Source: a virus. From it: a stretch of 64,000 nucleotides of DNA. The stretch spans positions 86,462-150,461 of IMG/VR virus record IMGVR_UViG_3300032323_002909; one strand, 5' to 3'. Both the position numbers and the translations under genes were made by a program. Under the pieces are notes generated by a model. The model did no database searches. It was not told the DNA's origin and saw only the letters and a list, made by a program, of their open reading frames with translations. Positions within the stretch are counted from its first letter, which is position 1. Each line of letters begins with the position of its first letter. Of the stretch, positions 2-16,350 are shown piece by piece.

Positions 2-1207
2 ACCAATGTTTCTAGTGCCAAATTGGAGGAAATCAACAATACATTGGATACTCTAAATGATCAACAAGCAGATTATGAGAAAAAATTAGCTGAAAGAGAA
101 CAACTTCTTGAACAAAAAAGAAATGATATTACTGATAAAATTAAAGATATCACGAAATCTATTTCTGCTATAGAAATTTTAGATGTTTCTGAGATATCAA
201 TCGAACAAGACAAATATCACGAAGCATGGGTAAAATTAGATGGTAAAATTGGACAAGTTAATCACGAGTTATCCACTAAAGAGACGTTACGCCGTTTAAA
301 AATCAATCAAATAAATTCTGTATCATCTGTCGATACTACTGTTCAATGTGACAAGTGTTTACAGGATGTGCCTCATACACATATTGATCATTTGGAAAAA
401 CTTAAAGCTCAATATATCGAAGAACGAGATGCTATAGATAAAGAAATTGAACGGTTGAATAATGAGAAGCAACAATATCATGATAAAAAGAGACGTATTC
501 AAAATAAAGTCGCCGAATTGCAAGAACAAATCAATACTTCTAAGTTGAATCGTCAAAAATTGGAAGCTTTTCAAAGACAAATAGAACAATATCAAGAGTC
601 ATTGGATAATTTAAAATTGGAAGAATTACCTAAGCCAAATTTTGAAGAAAGTATTAATAATACTGAAAAACGTAAACTGGTAGAGAGTGAAAATCTTAAA
701 TTATTGAAGCAAAAAGCTCAGGATTATGATGTTTGTAAATTTGTTCTTAGTGAAGAAGGTGTGAGAAGTTTTGTCGTTAAGCGTTTATTATCGATGATGA
801 ACGCTAGTATTCAACAATATATAAATGATTTGGGTATGAGCATTCGTTGTAAATTCAATGAATACTTCGATGAACAATTGTCAAACGATAAAGGAATCGA
901 GATATCATATTGGAATCTAAGTGGTGGTGAAAGACGAACTGTCGATCTGGCATGTGCTTGGGCATTCAAAGATTTGAAGCGTAAAATTTCTGGTGTAACA
1001 TCAAATGTTGAATTTTTTGATGAATATCTCGACTCAACACTCGATTCTACTGGTATAGATAAATTAATCGAGCAAATTAAGTGTCGAATCGACAAATATA
1101 ACTTGTCAGTATATGTCATATCACACCGTGTGGAGACTAACAAACACGTCACAGGAGAAGTGGTCGAATTAATTAAAGAAAATGGTATAACCAAACGAGT
1201 ATCTTGA
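2..1207 (+). CDS. 46: Recombination endonuclease ATPase subunit, T4 gp46/SbcC/Rad50-like (5' partial)
   Basis: Coiled coil with CDKC zinc hook, ABC signature LSGGE, Walker B FFDE, ISH motif; frame is open to the window edge. Confidence 0.93.
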   Translation, partial: TNVSSAKLEEINNTLDTLNDQQADYEKKLAEREQLLEQKRNDITDKIKDITKSISAIEILDVSEISIEQDKYHEAWVKLDGKIGQVNHELSTKETLRRLKINQINSVSSVDTTVQCDKCLQDVPHTHIDHLEKLKAQYIEERDAIDKEIERLNNEKQQYHDKKRRIQNKVAELQEQINTSKLNRQKLEAFQRQIEQYQESLDNLKLEELPKPNFEESINNTEKRKLVESENLKLLKQKAQDYDVCKFVLSEEGVRSFVVKRLLSMMNASIQQYINDLGMSIRCKFNEYFDEQLSNDKGIEISYWNLSGGERRTVDLACAWAFKDLKRKISGVTSNVEFFDEYLDSTLDSTGIDKLIEQIKCRIDKYNLSVYVISHRVETNKHVTGEVVELIKENGITKRVS

Positions 1208-1236
1208 CAAAATAGATTGTGGAAATAGATAATATC

Positions 1237-2442
1237 ATGTTTCCACAATCTCCCTTTGCTGCATCTCCGTTTGTATCGCCCTTTCCTCAAAATATAATGA
1301 TAGGTAAACCACCTGTTGAAAAAATTGAGAAACGCCATTCTTATTTAAATTTTTTAGCTGATCGACAAGGATGTGGACAATGGCGAATTGGGTGGGCAGA
1401 GAACCATATTAATATGTCAAATATGGGTGAATCAACATCCGTGACGAAAATGATTTTTGATAAAGGTTGGTATCGTGACATCACAACCGTTAAATTACAA
1501 CGTCAAGCATCGACAATGCAAAAAGAATTTTTTCAATTTCTTAAAAGCATCCAAGAAGAAATGGGTTTCAAAATAATCTACGAAGTTGACGATGTTGTTT
1601 TTTATGAAGAAATTCCCGATTATAATATCTTCAAAGAATCATTTGCTAATGACGAGATAAGACAAAATTGCGTGGATATGGTTAGAATGGCTGATGAGGT
1701 CACTGTTACATGCAAATATATGCGAGACCTGTTTATCGAGAAAACAGGACAGTTTAACATTTCAGCGGTTCCGAATTTCCCACCTGAGTGGTGGATAGGT
1801 CATCAATATGATTATAATCAGATTATTCATAATCATACTAAGCATAAAAATCGTCCAAGAATTTTGTATTCTGGTTCAGGTGCTCATTTTGATGTTAAAA
1901 ATAATACAAATCAACAAGATGATTTTTCCCATGTGTTGAAATTTATAATAGATAATCGATACAAATATCAATTTATTTTCATTGGTTCTTACCCACCACC
2001 ATTACATAAATATATTGAAAATAAAGAAATTGAATTTTATCAGTGGCAAACTTTAATGAATTACCCTAAATTTATTTCATCTTTGAATGTTCAAATGTTA
2101 TTAGCACCTTTAATGGATATACCATTCAACAGATCAAAATCTGATATCAAATATATTGAAGGAGCATGTCTCGGTATTCCTTGTATGTGTCAAGACATGG
2201 TAACATATCAAGATACTCCAGATTTCCTTAAATTTAAGGATTTTGAAGACTTGGCAATAAAGACTGAATATCTTTTAAATTGGAAGAATGATAAAAAATA
2301 TTATCAACTTGTGAAACAATTAAGAAAATTAGGAGAAACTAGATTTTTAGAAAGACCTGAAAATATAGGAGCTTTTATTGAAGCAATGAATACACCATTT
2401 GGCGACCCTAGTAGAAAATATTTGAGACCTTGGAATGATTAA
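1237..2442 (+). CDS. Glycosyltransferase, GT-B fold (GT4-like)
   Basis: GCGQWRI, YEVDD, ADEVTV, PNF, YSGSGAH, APLMDIPFNRSKSDIKYIE motifs typical of phage GT4-like enzymes; ATG 1237 preferred over GTG 1219. Confidence 0.75.
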   Translation: MFPQSPFAASPFVSPFPQNIMIGKPPVEKIEKRHSYLNFLADRQGCGQWRIGWAENHINMSNMGESTSVTKMIFDKGWYRDITTVKLQRQASTMQKEFFQFLKSIQEEMGFKIIYEVDDVVFYEEIPDYNIFKESFANDEIRQNCVDMVRMADEVTVTCKYMRDLFIEKTGQFNISAVPNFPPEWWIGHQYDYNQIIHNHTKHKNRPRILYSGSGAHFDVKNNTNQQDDFSHVLKFIIDNRYKYQFIFIGSYPPPLHKYIENKEIEFYQWQTLMNYPKFISSLNVQMLLAPLMDIPFNRSKSDIKYIEGACLGIPCMCQDMVTYQDTPDFLKFKDFEDLAIKTEYLLNWKNDKKYYQLVKQLRKLGETRFLERPENIGAFIEAMNTPFGDPSRKYLRPWND

Positions 2443-2729: not shown

Positions 2730-2797
2730 GATATTATTTATCTTACATGATGACTTTTAAATAAAAATGATTTCTATTAAATACTAAATATATATAA

Positions 2798-3442
2798 ATG
2801 AGAAGTAGCGATTATTTTTTAGAAATTTCAAATATTTATTCGAGGATCATAAATGAATCCCCTGATAATATTACAATTATTGACGATAATGGTGATCATA
2901 AAAATATATCGTATTATAACACACCAGATGCCTACACTGGTCTTATCGGTAGTGATGGTGAATATGTCTTGTCGAAAGATATTATAGGTCATAGTAATTT
3001 AATCGATCATATTTTACATCATGGAGAAGATATTATTCAAAAGTTAATAACCAATCTTGATGATATATATGATTTGCAAAGATTGGTTAGAGAAAGAATA
3101 AAAATAAGAATTTGGAAAAATCAAAAAGTTTTTAGTATGTGGGATTATTACAAGCCTTCATACGAAACTGCCATCAAAAATTCCTTAAAAGCTATAGGTC
3201 AAAATTATAAACAATATAGATATGATAATGAATACAAAGATTATAATGACATGCCTTTATACGATACTTTTTTCGTAAATAGTTTAACGGATGAACAAAA
3301 AGAAGAGAACACGATGGCAGCAATGAAAAAAATTGAAGCAGAAAGAGCTTTAATGGATAAAATAGCTGGCGCTAGACAAAGACCATCGAATGGTGAAACG
3401 CCTTACAGAAAACCTTCTTGGATGAATAGAGAAGGGGATTAA
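2798..3442 (+). CDS. Hypothetical late protein with putative head-targeting N-terminus
   Basis: TAAATA 2785-2790; N-terminus ...EISNIYSRIINE|S. Confidence 0.7.
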   Translation: MRSSDYFLEISNIYSRIINESPDNITIIDDNGDHKNISYYNTPDAYTGLIGSDGEYVLSKDIIGHSNLIDHILHHGEDIIQKLITNLDDIYDLQRLVRERIKIRIWKNQKVFSMWDYYKPSYETAIKNSLKAIGQNYKQYRYDNEYKDYNDMPLYDTFFVNSLTDEQKEENTMAAMKKIEAERALMDKIAGARQRPSNGETPYRKPSWMNREGD

Positions 3443-3501
3443 TATTAGCAATCTTTGTGTTTATAGCTTGCTATTTGAAATAAGGGTGATAAATAAACAA
3501 C

Positions 3502-3783
3502 ATGTCTAATAATATCCAAAACAACGATAAGCACATCCACGGTGATGTGCAAGCCACTAATGTAACAGAAGCGACTACGCCGTTGGATGATGCGTCTTGT
3601 TGTGCTTCGGATTTTCAAGCTAGAAAGGATGCTGTATGCCGAGAATTGGTCGAACATCTAAGAAACATTCCGAGACAACAACCAGTAGGTGAAGAAATCC
3701 AAACCGTCTGGACACCATTTGTGGAGAAATTCAAAGAAATAGGGAAACGATTCGATGAATCATTCAGAGGAATCTCCCAATGA
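3502..3783 (+). CDS. Small ORF reading through the attC-like site, antisense to the cassette
   Basis: 93 codons preceded by TTGCTA-N16-TAAATA-N6-ATG; codons about 7-35 are the attC hairpin itself. Confidence 0.4.
   Translation: MSNNIQNNDKHIHGDVQATNVTEATTPLDDASCCASDFQARKDAVCRELVEHLRNIPRQQPVGEEIQTVWTPFVEKFKEIGKRFDESFRGISQ
3519..3605 (-). mobile_element. attC-like integron recombination site, copy 1
   Basis: Minus strand GCACAAC-AAGAC-GCA[T]CATCCA[A]CGG...CCG-TGGATG-TGC-TTATC-GTTGTTT: AAC/GTT core triplets, 5-nt unpaired spacers, two extrahelical bases in the left arm. Confidence 0.75.
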
Positions 3784-3983
3784 CATCGACAATTCCAATA
3801 TAATTTCTTCAATTTTTTGTTTGATCTTCTCCTTAATATGATCAGGAACTTCCGCACTATTCAACTTTTCGGTTAAAGTATCGATTTGTTTGATTGTTCT
3901 TTCGTAATTTGCCATACGCTTGTTATTTGCGCTCGCGATGATAAATCATAACGGAGGAGTGTCTAGGGGATTATTTGGCACAA
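3525..3983 (-). mobile_element. Putative integron gene cassette (459 bp)
   Basis: Begins TTGTGC after the G of the upstream attC; its own attC begins GCACAAC, the exact complement of GTTGTGC; one ORF points toward the attC. Confidence 0.7.
3760..3915 (-). CDS. 51-aa helical cassette-encoded protein (not in ORF track)
   Basis: MANYERTIKQIDTLTEKLNSAEVPDHIKEKIKQKIEEIILELSMSLGDSSE*, hand-translated; upstream TAGACA(3965-3960)-N16-TATCAT(3943-3938). Confidence 0.55.
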   Translation of the reverse strand: MANYERTIKQIDTLTEKLNSAEVPDHIKEKIKQKIEEIILELSMSLGDSSE

Positions 3984-4064
3984 CGATAAGCACATCCACG
4001 GTGATGTGCAAGACCCAAATGTGACAGAAGCGACTACACCGTTGGATGATGCGGCTTGTTGACA
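3978..4064 (-). mobile_element. attC-like integron recombination site, copy 2
   Basis: 76/82 identical to copy 1 over 3980-4061 vs 3521-3602; minus strand TGTCAAC...GTTGTGC. Confidence 0.75.
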
Positions 4065-4086
4065 TTCATGATGTTTGTGTTATACT
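4059..4086 (+). promoter_or_regulatory. Sigma70-type promoter of DNA polymerase (leaderless geometry)
   Basis: TTGACA-N16-(TGn)TATACT, ATG 6 nt downstream. Confidence 0.8.
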
Positions 4087-4092
4087 CGATCC

Positions 4093-6621
4093 ATGTCTTA
4101 TAGAAATTGTGTGTATAACAACCGTGAACAAAAGATTTTTTTATGGACTTGGAATGATAATGGTGAGAGGGTTAAAGAGGAATGGGATTTCAAGCCATAC
4201 ATTCTACTAGAAGATAAAAATGGTGATGAAAAATCTATTTACGGCACCAAATTAAAGAAAAAAGAATTCAATAGTGGGTATGATCGTAATCAATTTATAA
4301 AAGATAGTAATATCAAAAGAATTTACGAGAACCTACCACCTTACCAACAATTCTTAATTGACAATTATTGGTTTGTGTGCGAAAACGACGAATTTTCACA
4401 ACATCCATTAAAAGTTGCTTATTTAGACTTGGAAAACCCGAAGGCAGATGGGTTCCCTGATCCTGTATTGGCAGATTCGGTTATCAACTTGATAACTTGC
4501 TACGATTCCTTCAGCAAAATATATCATGTATTCGGTTTGAAAAATTTCCATACGACGAGAGATGATGTGAAATATTATTGGTGTAAATCCGAACACGATT
4601 TGTTGAAATCTTTTATTAAATTCTTTAGAAAAGAAGAGTTTGATGTCATCACATCATGGAACGGTGCAGCATACGATATACCCACGTTAGTGAATCGTGT
4701 TACGTTTGAATTGGGTAAAGAATGGGCTGATAAATTATCCCCAATTGGAAGGATTTATGAGAAGACTAATCCCACTGGTAAATTTGGTATGCCCACCAAA
4801 GAATATGTCATCGAGGGTATTTCATCATTGGACTACTATGTGATATATCAAAAATTTAATTTGGAAAAACAAGAGTCATATAAACTCGATCATATCGGAG
4901 AGGTAGAACTCGGCATTAACAAAATCCAACACGAAGGTAATTTGTGGGAACTTTCCAAAAACGATTGGTATACTTACACCAACTACAACATACGAGATGT
5001 TGAAATTTTGGTAAAACTAGAAGAGAAAAAGGGTTATATTTCACTATTGCGTTTCCTCGCATACACAGGATTGTGTGATTTGGAAAATGCTATCAAGACT
5101 GTCCCTCCTATGAATGGAGCTATCGCCATACGTGCGCGTATGCGTGGAGAGTATATTCCCACTTTCATACGTCCAGTCACTGACTACAAAGCACCAGGTG
5201 GATACGTAGCAGATCCACGTATTGGATTTGCTGAAGATATTGTATCATTCGATGCCAATTCGCTATACCCATCTGTAATGATATCTTTGAATTTATCACC
5301 AGAGACTAAAATAGGTAGGGTTGAAAAAATTAATGATATCATCAAAATCCATCATGTATCGGGTCGAATTTTTGAGATGTCTTCGGATAATTTTAAGAAA
5401 TATATCACCGAAGAAAAAGCATCATTGACAAAAGCTGGTTTCTTATTCTCGCAGAAAAAAGTTGGATTGGTTCCCGAATTCTTGGACAACCTTTACACCA
5501 AACGTAAAGAAATGAAGGGTAAAATGTTGGATTGTAGAAAAAAAGGCGATAAAGAGGGCGAACAAAAATTCGATACTATCCAGTATGCCTATAAAATTCA
5601 CCTTAATTCTTTATATGGTTACATGTTAAACAAATATGCCCCCATGGGTGATGAAGACATAGGAACATCTGTTACTCTAACTGGTCAAGCTGTAATCAAA
5701 AAGAGTAATGAATTATTTTTGGATTACATGACACAGAGACTCAACACTACTGTCGATATTGAAAAATCATTGATATACAACGATACTGACGCATTATATG
5801 TCTCGTTGAGCATGTTGAAAGCTAAAGGTTTGGTGTTGAAAGATGGTGATAAGGTATCGACAGAATTTTACAAAGAGTGTCAGGATATTGAAAATCACAT
5901 CAATAGCGGTATTAACAAATGGGCTATCAAGAGTTTGAGAAGTAATGACCCTAGATTTGTATTCAAACGTGAATCCATTTGTGACCGTGGTATCTTCATT
6001 GGTAAGAAATATTATGTCCTACACACTCTCGACGAAGAAGGTGTCGTTACTGATAAATTCAAATATAAAGGCGTTGATGTTGTTAAAACTACTATGCCTA
6101 AAAAGGTCAAACCATATGTCAAGAAAGTCATTGAGCATATGATCCTATCAAAATCGTTGAAAGAAACCAACGATATTTTCAATGAAGCATACGAAGCATT
6201 TAAAAATTTATCAATTGAGGAAATATCCAAAATATCTGGCATGAATAATTATGCAGAATATTCTGCAAGATGTAATGGTATGACAACCTGTAAAGGTATG
6301 CCATCTCATTTAAAAGCCGCATATTATCATGATTTAATTTTAGACCAAGTTGGATTGGTATCGAAATATGATAAATTTAAAACTGGTGATAAGGTTCGAA
6401 TCGTATACGTGAAAAAACCCAATCGTTATGATATTGATATGATAGGATTCAAAGACCGATGGATACCAGAATATGATAATATTTTCAAGGTGGATTATGA
6501 AAAAATGTTTGGTAAAATATTCTATGCTGCCATCGAAAGATTTTATAATGCCGTAAGGTGGACATTACGAAAACCAACTGAAAACTTAGTCGTTGAAATT
6601 GAGGATATTTTTGGAGAATAA
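4093..6621 (+). CDS. 43: Family B DNA polymerase, T4 gp43-like
   Basis: Exo motifs DLE, WNGAAYD, YNIRD; polymerase motifs SFDANSLYPS, KIHLNSLYG, YNDTD. Confidence 0.97.
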   Translation: MSYRNCVYNNREQKIFLWTWNDNGERVKEEWDFKPYILLEDKNGDEKSIYGTKLKKKEFNSGYDRNQFIKDSNIKRIYENLPPYQQFLIDNYWFVCENDEFSQHPLKVAYLDLENPKADGFPDPVLADSVINLITCYDSFSKIYHVFGLKNFHTTRDDVKYYWCKSEHDLLKSFIKFFRKEEFDVITSWNGAAYDIPTLVNRVTFELGKEWADKLSPIGRIYEKTNPTGKFGMPTKEYVIEGISSLDYYVIYQKFNLEKQESYKLDHIGEVELGINKIQHEGNLWELSKNDWYTYTNYNIRDVEILVKLEEKKGYISLLRFLAYTGLCDLENAIKTVPPMNGAIAIRARMRGEYIPTFIRPVTDYKAPGGYVADPRIGFAEDIVSFDANSLYPSVMISLNLSPETKIGRVEKINDIIKIHHVSGRIFEMSSDNFKKYITEEKASLTKAGFLFSQKKVGLVPEFLDNLYTKRKEMKGKMLDCRKKGDKEGEQKFDTIQYAYKIHLNSLYGYMLNKYAPMGDEDIGTSVTLTGQAVIKKSNELFLDYMTQRLNTTVDIEKSLIYNDTDALYVSLSMLKAKGLVLKDGDKVSTEFYKECQDIENHINSGINKWAIKSLRSNDPRFVFKRESICDRGIFIGKKYYVLHTLDEEGVVTDKFKYKGVDVVKTTMPKKVKPYVKKVIEHMILSKSLKETNDIFNEAYEAFKNLSIEEISKISGMNNYAEYSARCNGMTTCKGMPSHLKAAYYHDLILDQVGLVSKYDKFKTGDKVRIVYVKKPNRYDIDMIGFKDRWIPEYDNIFKVDYEKMFGKIFYAAIERFYNAVRWTLRKPTENLVVEIEDIFGE

Positions 6622-8211: not shown

Positions 8212-9318
8212 ATGGATAAAGAAATTGCATCAATTTTGGACAGCTTAAATGATGTTGTCCCATATTCAGCCTACCTTTCAGAATCAACCCTTTCATCTGT
8301 AGATGATTGGATTGATACTGGAAGCATGGTTTTGAATGCGCTTATTTCTGGTTCATTGTATGGTGGCGTTCCAAAAGGTCGCATCACCCAATTTGCAGGT
8401 CCTTCTCAGAGTTTTAAATCTGGTATTGTCCTTAACATCTTGGCAAATGCTCAGAAAAAAGGCATGATTCCAGTGATTTTTGATACCGAAGGCGCAATTG
8501 ACCCTGAATCAGCTGCAAAATTCGGTTTAGATATTGCTAAAGTAAAATATGTAGGTTGTGAATCGGTTGAACAAACTCGAAACGCCATCTACAAATTTCT
8601 TAAAAATGTTCGAGATAAGAAACAATTTGGTAAGTTTATTATCGCAATTGATTCCTTGGCGAATTTGAATTCTGAAATGGAATTAACACGCATGGACAAA
8701 GATTCTATGTCTGCTGATATGGGAACATTTGCCAAGTCTGTAAAGAGTCTTTTGAAGACATGCACAAACATGTCTACTTTGACTAAAACTCCTATCATTA
8801 TTACAAATCATGTTTATGATGATCCTAGTGCAATGTATCCATCTTTAGAGAAGAATATGCCAGGCGGTAAAGCGGCGGTTTATCTTCCTTCTGTGACAGT
8901 TCAACTGGCTCGTAAACTTGTTAAAGATGGTGAATTGAAACAGGTTAATGATAAGCTTTCGGCATCACAAAAGAATTATTCTGGTGTTGTCATTAGAATG
9001 CTTACTGTTAAAAATAGATTCGTTAAACAATACCTTGAAGGTGAAATGTATTTATCTTTCAGTAAAGGTTTGAATAAATATTATGGATTGGTTGACATTA
9101 TGAAAGGTATGGGAGTTATTACCAACTCTGGTTCAGCTTATTCTGATTGGGAGGGTAATAAACTTGGATATCTTAAGGTTTGGTCGAAAGACATTGACTT
9201 ATGGGAAAACAAATTGCTCCCAGAACTCGAAAAACGTGTTAAAATTCACTGGGCATATGGTTCATCTCCCGATGAAGACGATTTGACTTCTCTGGAAGAT
9301 GATGATGGTGAAGAATAA
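8212..9318 (+). CDS. uvsX: RecA-like recombinase UvsX
   Basis: IDTGS..LNALISGS, Walker A GPSQSFKS, FDTE, IDSL, TNH, MPGG, KNRF. Confidence 0.95.
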   Translation: MDKEIASILDSLNDVVPYSAYLSESTLSSVDDWIDTGSMVLNALISGSLYGGVPKGRITQFAGPSQSFKSGIVLNILANAQKKGMIPVIFDTEGAIDPESAAKFGLDIAKVKYVGCESVEQTRNAIYKFLKNVRDKKQFGKFIIAIDSLANLNSEMELTRMDKDSMSADMGTFAKSVKSLLKTCTNMSTLTKTPIIITNHVYDDPSAMYPSLEKNMPGGKAAVYLPSVTVQLARKLVKDGELKQVNDKLSASQKNYSGVVIRMLTVKNRFVKQYLEGEMYLSFSKGLNKYYGLVDIMKGMGVITNSGSAYSDWEGNKLGYLKVWSKDIDLWENKLLPELEKRVKIHWAYGSSPDEDDLTSLEDDDGEE

Positions 9319-15450: not shown

Positions 15451-16350
15451 ATGGAATCGCCTATTGACAAACTCATAAAAATTAATAATTATGATATGTC
15501 TAAAATTTTTGCGTGGGTAAATTCTGATTTGGATGGTATAGGTTCTACCATCTTATTGGGTAATCTATTTAAAAATTTTGAATATCGTCACTGTTTCTTT
15601 GGTAATTTCGAGGAGCAATATCTGCTATGGGCTAAGGATAATGCGGTAGATTACGATAAAATTTTCATCGTCGGTATGGTTTTAGATCAAAATCTTATCA
15701 AAAAAATAGATGACCAGCGAGTAGTGTTCGTGTCCGACCGAAATGAACAATTCAAAACATGGGATTCTACCATTATTCATGATGAATGCTCCTCTTGCAC
15801 GAAATTATTGTATAAAAAATTTAAAGAAAAAATTGAATTCACTAAAAATCTGAAAAAATTCTTTCTGTATGTTGATGATTACAATTCTTACGATCTAAAA
15901 CACGAAGAAACCAAATATATAAACGCATTTTATAGAAAATCTGGAGCTAATCGTTTTATTAATTTTGTAAATCGTTTTTGGAACGGTTTTGATGGGTTTA
16001 AAGAATCGGAAGTCAAACTTGCCGATGGATTCTTCAAAGAATTAGAAAAAGAATTATCCGAGATCACCCTTTACAAGGGAGAATGGAGTGGTTACAATAT
16101 TATCTCCACTATATCAAAATTTTCGGTTAATGAATTAGCACACTCTATCATGAGTAATTATGAGGGGGATGCAGTAATCATCATGAATCCAGATACACAG
16201 TTTGTTTCGTTTAGAAAATATAAAGGTTCTGACATCGATATTGCTAAAATCGCGAATATGTTATGCGATGGTGGCGGTGGCGAATGGGCAGCAGGTGGTA
16301 AAATCACCAAAGAATTTTTAAAATTTAGCGAAACTTTAAAAGAAATTTAA
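15451..16350 (+). CDS. DHH/DHHA1 phosphoesterase-like protein with degenerate active site
   Basis: NSDLDG motif I, VSFR and GGGGEWAAGG DHHA1-like tail; DHH replaced by SDR. Confidence 0.65.
   Translation: MESPIDKLIKINNYDMSKIFAWVNSDLDGIGSTILLGNLFKNFEYRHCFFGNFEEQYLLWAKDNAVDYDKIFIVGMVLDQNLIKKIDDQRVVFVSDRNEQFKTWDSTIIHDECSSCTKLLYKKFKEKIEFTKNLKKFFLYVDDYNSYDLKHEETKYINAFYRKSGANRFINFVNRFWNGFDGFKESEVKLADGFFKELEKELSEITLYKGEWSGYNIISTISKFSVNELAHSIMSNYEGDAVIIMNPDTQFVSFRKYKGSDIDIAKIANMLCDGGGGEWAAGGKITKEFLKFSETLKEI

Follow-up and report, generated by a model that had tools for sequence, protein, structure and literature searches.

The 64,000-nucleotide stretch analysed here (positions 86,462 to 150,461 of IMG/VR record IMGVR_UViG_3300032323_002909, hereafter the window) carries two near-identical palindromic repeats just upstream of the gp43-type DNA polymerase gene of a T4-like phage. 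We read this locus, with a probability of roughly 0.8, as a cluster of attC sites lacking an integron integrase (CALIN) that holds one integron cassette (3525-3983) in the gp43-upstream gap of a lytic T4-like phage, probably infecting freshwater Verrucomicrobiota. A preliminary description, made from the letters of the window, had proposed that an attC-like repeat pair brackets an integron cassette and had pointed to bacterial arrays of the repeat beside intI as a check; the anatomy of the sites, their covariation and the arrays that we found beside intI in Verrucomicrobiota genomes bear this out.

Anatomy of the two attC sites

The two repeats (Table 1) are 87-nt imperfect palindromes that are 93% identical. 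They contain a direct repeat (D1) of 82 nt at 3521-3602 and 3980-4061, with 76 of 82 positions identical and a spacing of 459, exactly the values given in the preliminary description. The mismatches had been placed in the loop, its base and one spacer only, and here a correction is needed: one of the six lies in the stem (3579 G / 4038 A), where it converts a T.G pair to T-A. The + strand of each copy reads AAC-GATAA-GCA-CATCCA-CGGTG-[33-nt loop]-CGCCG-T-TGGATG-A-TGC-G(T/G)CTT-GTT, a core pattern with two matches in the window against 0.00 expected from 100 shuffles. A covariance model of the attC family (see below) scores the two copies at 69.6 and 67.9 bits (E = 6e-19 and 2e-18) and detects no further copy anywhere in the window or across the full 150,461 bp of the record.

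According to the published structural definition (Nivina et al. 2016, PMC5027507), the R′ box of a bottom-strand attC site ends in AAC, with the crossover between A and C (AA|C); a spacer of 5-6 nt is unpaired; two extrahelical bases, one at position 16 (usually G) and a conserved T at position 23 or 24, flank a 6-bp stem on the arm opposite the AAC; the variable loop often has a GAA; and the bottom strand is the more stable one. In the window, GATAA faces G(T/G)CTT as 5+5 unpaired nucleotides in both copies, and the extrahelical A3590 (G in the bacterial consensus) and T3583 have a 6-bp TGGATG/CATCCA stem between them, the extrahelical T being invariant throughout the attC family. The AAC and GTT triplets, invariant in 43 of 43 family members, are perfect in the window boxes AAACAAC/GTTGTGC and GCACAAC/GTTGACA. 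A GAA is present in the loop of site 1, and the total length, with a 33-nt loop, falls within the attC range of about 57-141 nt. Folding, which had been named as a check, favours the + strand over the minus strand by 1.4-1.8 kcal/mol and returns the expected attC structure. A search of the sites against Rfam 15 with E up to 10 gave chance matches only. Judged from sequence against this definition, both repeats are genuine attC sites of the integron type.

The position of the extra bases makes the + strand the bottom strand, and therefore places the crossovers at 3524|3525 and 3983|3984 and the cassette at 3525-3983. The preliminary description had read the minus strand as recombinogenic, with a crossover at the right-hand G|TT; the minus strand is instead the top strand and the crossover belongs at the left AA|C, a revision that leaves cassette length and end complementarity unchanged. 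The complementarity of the cassette ends reported there is confirmed at seven of seven positions (GTTGTGC after the first copy, GCACAAC before the second).

With two attC sites 459 bp apart and no integrase in the record, the locus has the make-up of a CALIN; the adjacent intI and attI of a complete integron are absent from the window. The earlier statement that the window encodes no integrase can be extended, as neither the whole 150-kb record nor any of five related phage records (one of them 154 kb) has a match to the tyrosine recombinase family PF00589. Likewise, tblastn of Verrucomicrobiota IntI against the window found nothing, and a search of the window for the Verrucomicrobiota attI motif CAGTNTTTATTCGTA, with up to 2 mismatches allowed, gave no match.

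The window subtype of the site has one further feature, a local second palindrome, GCACATC-CACGGT-GATGTGC, formed by the 5′ arm and the start of the loop (3531-3550 and 3990-4009). Seen on the minus strand, it resembles a terminator, with a hairpin that leads into a T-rich run.

The attC family of Verrucomicrobiota integrons

We collected loci of the family with the pattern CATCCACGG-N25-50-CCGTTGGATG, which matched 40 loci in IMG/VR and at least 120 in bacterial genomes. Among the bacterial matches listed, about 100 were from Verrucomicrobiota, and the metagenome-assembled genomes (MAGs) concerned belong to Akkermansiaceae, Luteolibacter, Verrucomicrobiaceae, Terrimicrobiaceae and Chthoniobacterales. 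From an alignment of 43 non-redundant copies we built the covariance model, R1. The proposed helix pairs 87% of cells in this alignment, compared with 31-54% when the partners are slid, and its covariation score is 0.167, compared with 0.04-0.07 in the slid controls. Adjoining the invariant core, pairs 16-78 and 17-77 have 17 and 22 compensatory double changes with hardly any unpaired cells, and pair 27-65 runs through the series C-G, T.G and T-A, which is possible only on the + strand.

In bacterial loci, R1 recovers same-strand arrays of 6-9 sites per 8 kb, with sites of 61-133 nt spaced 300-1400 bp apart. The integron integrase family TIGR02249 scored above its curated cut-off in three of four array genomes (386, 330 and 327 bits) and in none of 14 control genomes. 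An intI gene directly adjoins the R1 array in two genomes, and tblastn with these IntI proteins located more intI genes beside arrays in L077, L157, L156, L108, L155 and L105. The array always runs from intI in the direction that would follow if R1 models the bottom strand, and in 35 of 38 bacterial cassettes the longest open reading frame (ORF) lies on the opposite (top) strand, filling the cassette. On these comparisons we identify the window repeat family as the attC of Verrucomicrobiota integrons, and Verrucomicrobiota are the likely hosts of the phage.

In G002, G004 and L157, the interval from intI to the first cassette contains a conserved motif, AA|C-AGTNTTTATTCGTAG-N14-ATATCC, which is also found at the predicted array end in L102 and L158. 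Its fuller form is AA|C-AGTNTTTATTCGTAG-N14-ATATCC(A/G)(A/G)CA, and it is also written CAGTNTTTATTCGTAG-N14-ATATCC. We regard this motif as the candidate attI of these Verrucomicrobiota integrons.

Cassette turnover in related phages

Related T4-like phages carry from 0 to 4 sites, at differing loci and with unrelated cassette contents. The closest relative, L017, whose gp43 is 92% identical, has the same flanks around four sites and three cassettes; the contents of these three cassettes and of the one in the window are all unrelated to one another. The preliminary description had suggested that relatives might hold different cassettes or an empty site upstream of gp43: the former is what L017 displays, while an empty single site at this locus was found in none of the relatives. 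Among 58 IMG/VR gp43 relatives, sites occur at this locus only in the contig of L017 (also L177), which is likewise the sole IMG/VR match to the window-subtype pattern; a search of metagenome contigs with the window-subtype patterns gave 0 matches. Elsewhere the gap is filled differently, by a 467-aa gene in one gp43 relative, and in another the glycosyltransferase gene runs almost directly into gp43. Given these varied contents, the glycosyltransferase-gp43 gap is hyperplastic and the cassettes are one of several fillings.

The sites are found at other loci as well. A second lineage (L006, L011, L012, L014, L021 and L024) has two sites between a helicase-like gene and a homolog of window 15451-16350, and three long records of further relatives, two estimated to be complete and one 87% complete, have 1, 0 and 1 site. 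In L017, a cassette whose + strand ORF continues with the peptide 'VLEIYERAKY' precedes gp43; this cassette adjoins the gp25 baseplate gene in L242 and follows another neighbour in L241, and one sediment contig passes from a window-subtype site into it. Cassette order also differs, being c3-c2 in L241 and c2-c3 in L017. Public protein data hold at least 11 further cassette contents on the window attC subtype. In the site of L234, which has a GC content of 37%, the L box has changed to GAGTCA/TGACTC with the T bulge kept; the kept hairpin and this compensatory L box fit continued selection for recombination.

Array loci of 55-62% GC in IMG/VR (L032, L023, L009, L037 and others) were also considered as phages. 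They share no gene with the window and resemble bacterial arrays or misclassified contigs, and for this reason we did not use them as phage evidence. Two other contigs classed as viral in IMG/VR also bear sites: L041 has an IntI-like gene at 807-1673 (33% identical to Verrucomicrobiota IntI) and L008 an attI motif at 9016-9060. These may be misclassified bacterial integron fragments or phages with complete integrons. Separately, L006 has a 106-aa mosaic ORF upstream of its first attC (L006:1198-1518), made of a copy of the first 92 residues of the downstream gene and a tail similar to the C-terminal end of the helicase-like gene upstream.

Phage-type cassettes at the attI end of bacterial arrays

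Three contigs place cassettes of the phage type next to the candidate attI. Read in bottom-strand orientation, L240, a 1.7-kb contig from a JGI metagenome, starts with two GC-rich cassettes with top-strand ORFs, and reaches a bacterial attC that is 94% identical to one in a Chthoniobacterales MAG and leads into ...TTCAGCGAA|C. A window-subtype attC with an AT-rich cassette (35% GC) follows, then ...CAAAACAA|C and the attI motif. This AT-rich cassette is 98.4% identical over 497 nt to cassette 2 of L017, and the identity with the phage begins and ends at AA|C on both sides, excluding the left 'leader' of the phage. In L244 and L245, the attI motif has a 60%-GC PolX gene on one side and, on the other, a second such cassette, which carries a window-subtype attC and a window-like tail (GGAGGAGTGTCTAGTGGGATTATTAGCACAA|C) and borders in turn on a 50%-GC cassette; a third contig from another sample agrees with these two at the level of gene layout. 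An assembly chimera is an unlikely source of L240: exact words common to the bacterial-type and phage-type sites do not exceed about 10 nt at the junction, too short to cause a misassembly, and the analogous junction read in two contigs, L244 and L245, also counters it. The arrangement of L240, L244 and L245 is what excision by attC x attC and subsequent integration by attI x attC would be expected to produce, and it fits the view that an integrase recombines this subtype in nature.

One phage contig may record the opposite direction. In the 188-kb T4-like phage contig of L235 (35% GC), a 251-bp segment of 57% GC lies between two long bacterial-type attC sites and, by composition, looks like a recent capture from the host; no bacterial counterpart of this segment was found.

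The mechanism that we propose begins with the + strand, which when single-stranded would fold into the canonical attC hairpin. Recombination between two attC sites would release a cassette as a circle, which could then enter another attC or the attI of a host integron, with the host IntI acting on phage DNA during infection and cassettes passing in both directions. Such cassettes would be self-contained units, each with a promoter-like leader, a small top-strand gene and a terminator-like attC hairpin, adapted to AT-rich phages. That T4-like phages and the chromosomal integrons of Verrucomicrobiota share one cassette pool, with traffic both ways, host IntI excising cassettes and capturing them at attI, and cassettes of host or phage origin entering phage attC sites at several genomic loci, is a proposal that we advance tentatively, at slightly less than even odds.

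Evidence against integrase-mediated exchange, and alternative explanations

Several observations weigh against this proposal, or against the reading of the sites themselves. L240 and L244 are short metagenomic contigs, assigned to bacteria from composition, neighbouring cassettes and the attI motif. L244 and L245 extend past the attI motif into the PolX gene with no intI there, and L240 stops at the motif itself. The R boxes of the window match RYYYAAC/GTTRRRY only partly (AAACAAC, GTTGACA). The folding energies are not significantly better than those of shuffles (z -0.5 to -1.8); in our view this does not speak against the sites, since imperfect pairing belongs to the design of attC hairpins and the minimum-energy fold predicted for the + strand has the expected form. 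The excised cassette is predicted to have the circle junction ...GGCACAA|CGATAAGC..., and circular-junction reads had been suggested as evidence of excision; neither a circle nor a joint or empty site for this phage was present in the contigs of four sequencing runs. A single run, probably that of the source sample, contains the stretch, all runs are available as contigs, and the null result is no evidence for or against excision.

Composition also weighs against simple sampling of host cassettes. The phage cassettes have 31-40% GC, like the phage, whereas typical bacterial cassettes have 44-58%; the sites themselves have 46-52% in phages versus 50-64% in bacteria. The phage-like GC of the cassettes therefore implies a long residence in AT-rich genomes, during which the hairpin was kept, and simple sampling of a host array is thus not what is seen. 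It points to a phage-adapted cassette pool instead. The preliminary description had envisaged a landing pad with which the phage samples cassettes from its host by means of the host IntI; the AA|C breakpoints at attI fit the IntI traffic in this idea, and the AT-rich cassettes speak against simple sampling.

The best-surviving alternative, which we nevertheless consider unlikely, is that the sites are attC-derived relics of a host integron fragment acquired by an ancestor, in which leader-plus-attC repeats of about 150 nt provide portable homology and cassettes are swapped by double crossover between co-infecting phages, with no part for IntI. The repeat unit in the window and in L017 reaches about 60 nt beyond the attC and could therefore serve the phage's own homologous recombination, a further point against integrase traffic. 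T4-type phages do shuffle modules via short repeated promoter/stem-loop cassettes (PMC2839356, PMC4122927), and relics would also be in keeping with the phage-like GC of the cassettes, with the failure to find a phage integrase, and with a hyperplastic gap that holds unrelated non-cassette DNA in other relatives. What speaks for recombination by IntI over relics is that compensatory changes keep the attC structure in AT-rich phages (pair 27-65 and the L234 site), and that the moved unit in L240 and L244 ends at AA|C on both sides, without the left leader, and is joined to the non-homologous attI motif. By analogy with the promoter early stem-loop (PeSL) model (PMC2839356), T4-type homologous recombination between the repeats could contribute to exchanges among phages.

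It is very improbable that the repeat is primarily coding, an N-terminal module of 38 residues in small phage proteins with variable C-termini, with the palindrome incidental. At least 12 predicted proteins start with M..NDKHIHGDVQATNVTEATTPLDDAxCCAS and then diverge, and a start codon and promoter-like site stand ahead of several sites, but the frame through the 5′ half varies between subtypes (window versus L006) and the copies before gp43 are closed, by a TAA in site d of L017 and by a frame shift and TGA in site 2 of the window. Moreover, the element in bacteria is a non-coding spacer between cassette genes of the other strand, and its variation is explained by base-pair covariation, not by amino-acid conservation. 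Least credible of all is that the hairpins owe their conservation to regulation at the RNA level, as terminators or translational operators of the early genes nearby, gp43 among them: the minus-strand terminator-like hairpin inside each site (a 7-bp stem and T-rich tail) and the position of site 2 immediately upstream of the gp43 promoter-like site would suit such a role, but there is no Rfam match, the element is wholly absent from most gp43 relatives, and AAC/GTT, the unpaired spacer and the bulges at 16 and 23 are features of a DNA recombination site, not of a terminator.

Relation to known systems

Clusters of attC sites in virulent phages are already known. In the closest known system, integrase-less attC clusters were described in virulent phages and recombination by IntI1 was tested (Qi et al. 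2023, PMC9892861; cited alongside it, PMC4889954, 2016). The window resembles these clusters in having at least two attC sites with cassettes, no integrase and a lytic phage type, and in the proposed use of a bacterial IntI. It differs in that the attC family is here traced by sequence to the sedentary integrons of one host phylum, Verrucomicrobiota, that close relatives show cassette turnover at one locus, and that near-identical cassettes occur at the attI end of bacterial arrays; we found no report of a near-identical phage-type cassette in that position. The sites of Qi et al. were tested with IntI1, whereas those of the window are described here from sequence.

Sedentary chromosomal integrons, such as the Vibrio cholerae superintegron with its V. 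cholerae repeats (VCRs), share with the window similar attC sites between cassettes, small cassettes of unknown function and the hairpin architecture. In contrast, the window phage has no intI, attI or cassette promoter (Pc) and only one cassette, and phage cassettes appear to carry a promoter-like leader and often a bottom-strand ORF through the attC. The PeSL cassettes of T4-type phages (Arbiol et al. 2010, PMC2839356; Comeau et al. 2014, PMC4122927) are similar in that short repeats flank small non-essential genes in hyperplastic T4-like regions, with promoter- and terminator-like motifs and modular shuffling between relatives. A PeSL, however, consists of an early promoter and a terminator and moves by homologous recombination, whereas the window elements show the attC anatomy in full, are found beside intI in bacterial integrons and break at the point where IntI crosses over. 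Motifs resembling promoters and terminators also accompany the window sites; the conserved core, however, is the attC hairpin common to bacterial integrons and no pairing of promoter and terminator.

A host-specific attC sequence ties an uncultured freshwater T4-like phage to a host phylum, and the AA|C breakpoints and near-identical cassette at attI add natural sequence-level evidence that attC sites of lytic phages are substrates of bacterial integron integrases. If exchange does run in both directions, integrons would be a channel of gene flow between virulent phages and bacteria, which bears on the spread of small phage accessory genes, possibly for defence or counter-defence. Should the pool be shared, bacteria would archive phage genes via integrons, and lytic phages would swap accessory genes without an integrase of their own.

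Cassette cargo and gene neighbourhood

The parent of the window is a 150,461-bp IMG/VR record with an estimated completeness of 73%. A blastn search of 50,697 GenBank phage records gave no DNA-level match to the locus, and neither the cassette ORFs nor the 214-aa and 96-aa ORFs had a significant family match in Pfam, PHROGs or NCBIfam. The features of the locus, along with those referred to in other contigs, are listed in Table 1.

Table 1 Features of the attC locus in the window and of associated loci in other contigs (window positions unless a contig is named).
Feature	Position	Strand	Details
gp46-like nuclease subunit	2-1207		part of T4-like surroundings
Glycosyltransferase	1219-2442		T4-like surroundings, left of repeats
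96-aa ORF		minus	between glycosyltransferase and repeats; no family found
214-aa ORF	2798-3442	+	within glycosyltransferase-gp43 hypervariable gap; no family found
Conserved 'tail/leader' segment	3459-3524	+	left of site 1; also left of other phage sites
Possible 93-aa gene	3502-3783	+	starts 17 nt left of site 1; convergent with 51-aa gene
attC site 1	3519-3605	+	+ is the bottom (recombinogenic) strand
Site 1 R′ box	3519-3525	+	AAC 3523-3525, crossover 3524|3525
Site 1 spacers	3526-3530 and 3594-3598	+	GATAA and GTCTT
Site 1 L arm	3531-3544	+	
Site 1 loop (variable terminal structure, VTS)	3545-3577	+	
Site 1 L″ arm	3578-3593	+	extrahelical T3583 (position 23) and A3590 (position 16)
Site 1 R″ box	3599-3605	+	GTTGTGC
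Cassette as IntI would cut	3525-3983	minus	459 bp; R boxes pair 7/7 when circularised
51-aa cassette gene	3760-3915	minus	helical, charged protein; orientation of bacterial cassette genes
Promoter-like site of cassette	3938-3965	minus	TAGACA-16-TATCAT; 10/12 consensus match; upstream of 51-aa gene
attC site 2	3978-4064	+	anatomy of site 1 shifted +459
Site 2 AAC	3982-3984	+	crossover 3983|3984
Site 2 extrahelical bases	4042 and 4049	+	T4042, A4049
Site 2 R″ box	4058-4064	+	GTTGACA
Sigma-70-type promoter-like site	4059-4086	+	TTGACA-16-TATACT; 11/12 consensus match, TG extension; before gp43
T4 gp43-type DNA polymerase	4093-6621	+	conserved right-hand neighbour; phrog_262, E 8e-175
L235 captured-looking segment	L235:8542-9049		sites about 130 nt; 116-aa ORF starts inside first hairpin loop
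attI-candidate motif	L240:1641-1704		
attI-candidate motif	L244:1920-1965		
attI-candidate motif	L174:9000-9045	minus	
attI-candidate motif	L168:1360-1400	minus	
attI-candidate motif	L157:4340-4385	minus	
attI-candidate motif	L102:4291-4305		
attI-candidate motif	L158:601-615		

Along its top (minus) strand the cassette runs TTGTGCC-leader-51-aa ORF-...-GCACAAC-attC site 1. The leader, which holds a promoter-like site, is conserved in L017, L235 and L244, and a terminator-like hairpin lies inside the attC downstream of the ORF. The 51-aa protein has full-length homologs at 44-50% identity, and comparison with the L234 homolog gives codon-position identities of 0.60/0.77/0.40, a clear coding signature by which we take the predicted ORF to be a real gene. 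On the + strand, the 93-aa ORF reads through the attC (..NDKHIHGDVQATNVTEATTPLDDASCCAS..), and eleven database proteins match it in the attC-encoded 38 residues only and then diverge. Its tail has weak homology to the partner ORF in L234, and its non-attC part gives a weak codon signal (0.47/0.39/0.29); this attC-traversing ORF is a possible gene. The two-ORF layout recurs in L017, L006, L234, L235 and a contig of P0015.

At the left border, the segment 3459-3524 supplies the ATG of the 93-aa ORF and, by the AA|C rule, belongs to the unit to its left. At the right border, the R″ box of site 2, GTTGACA, includes the -35 hexamer of the promoter-like site ahead of gp43. The 214-aa ORF is present in the window and absent at the same place in the otherwise collinear L017; its flanks (2766-3473) were checked for a degenerate attC, a repeat or a junction, and none was found.

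Some bacterial attC sites of the family lack the right-hand GTT, namely those in L065, L069 (two sites), L078 and L140, and in L077, L086, L089 and L155. These continue into either CTT|CCATGAGAAGGCAGTC or CTTG|TGTGTGCCCAGCATG, each in different MAGs, and the joined sequences could be the ends of an attC-targeting element, such as those of the IS1111-attC group, or a widespread cassette.

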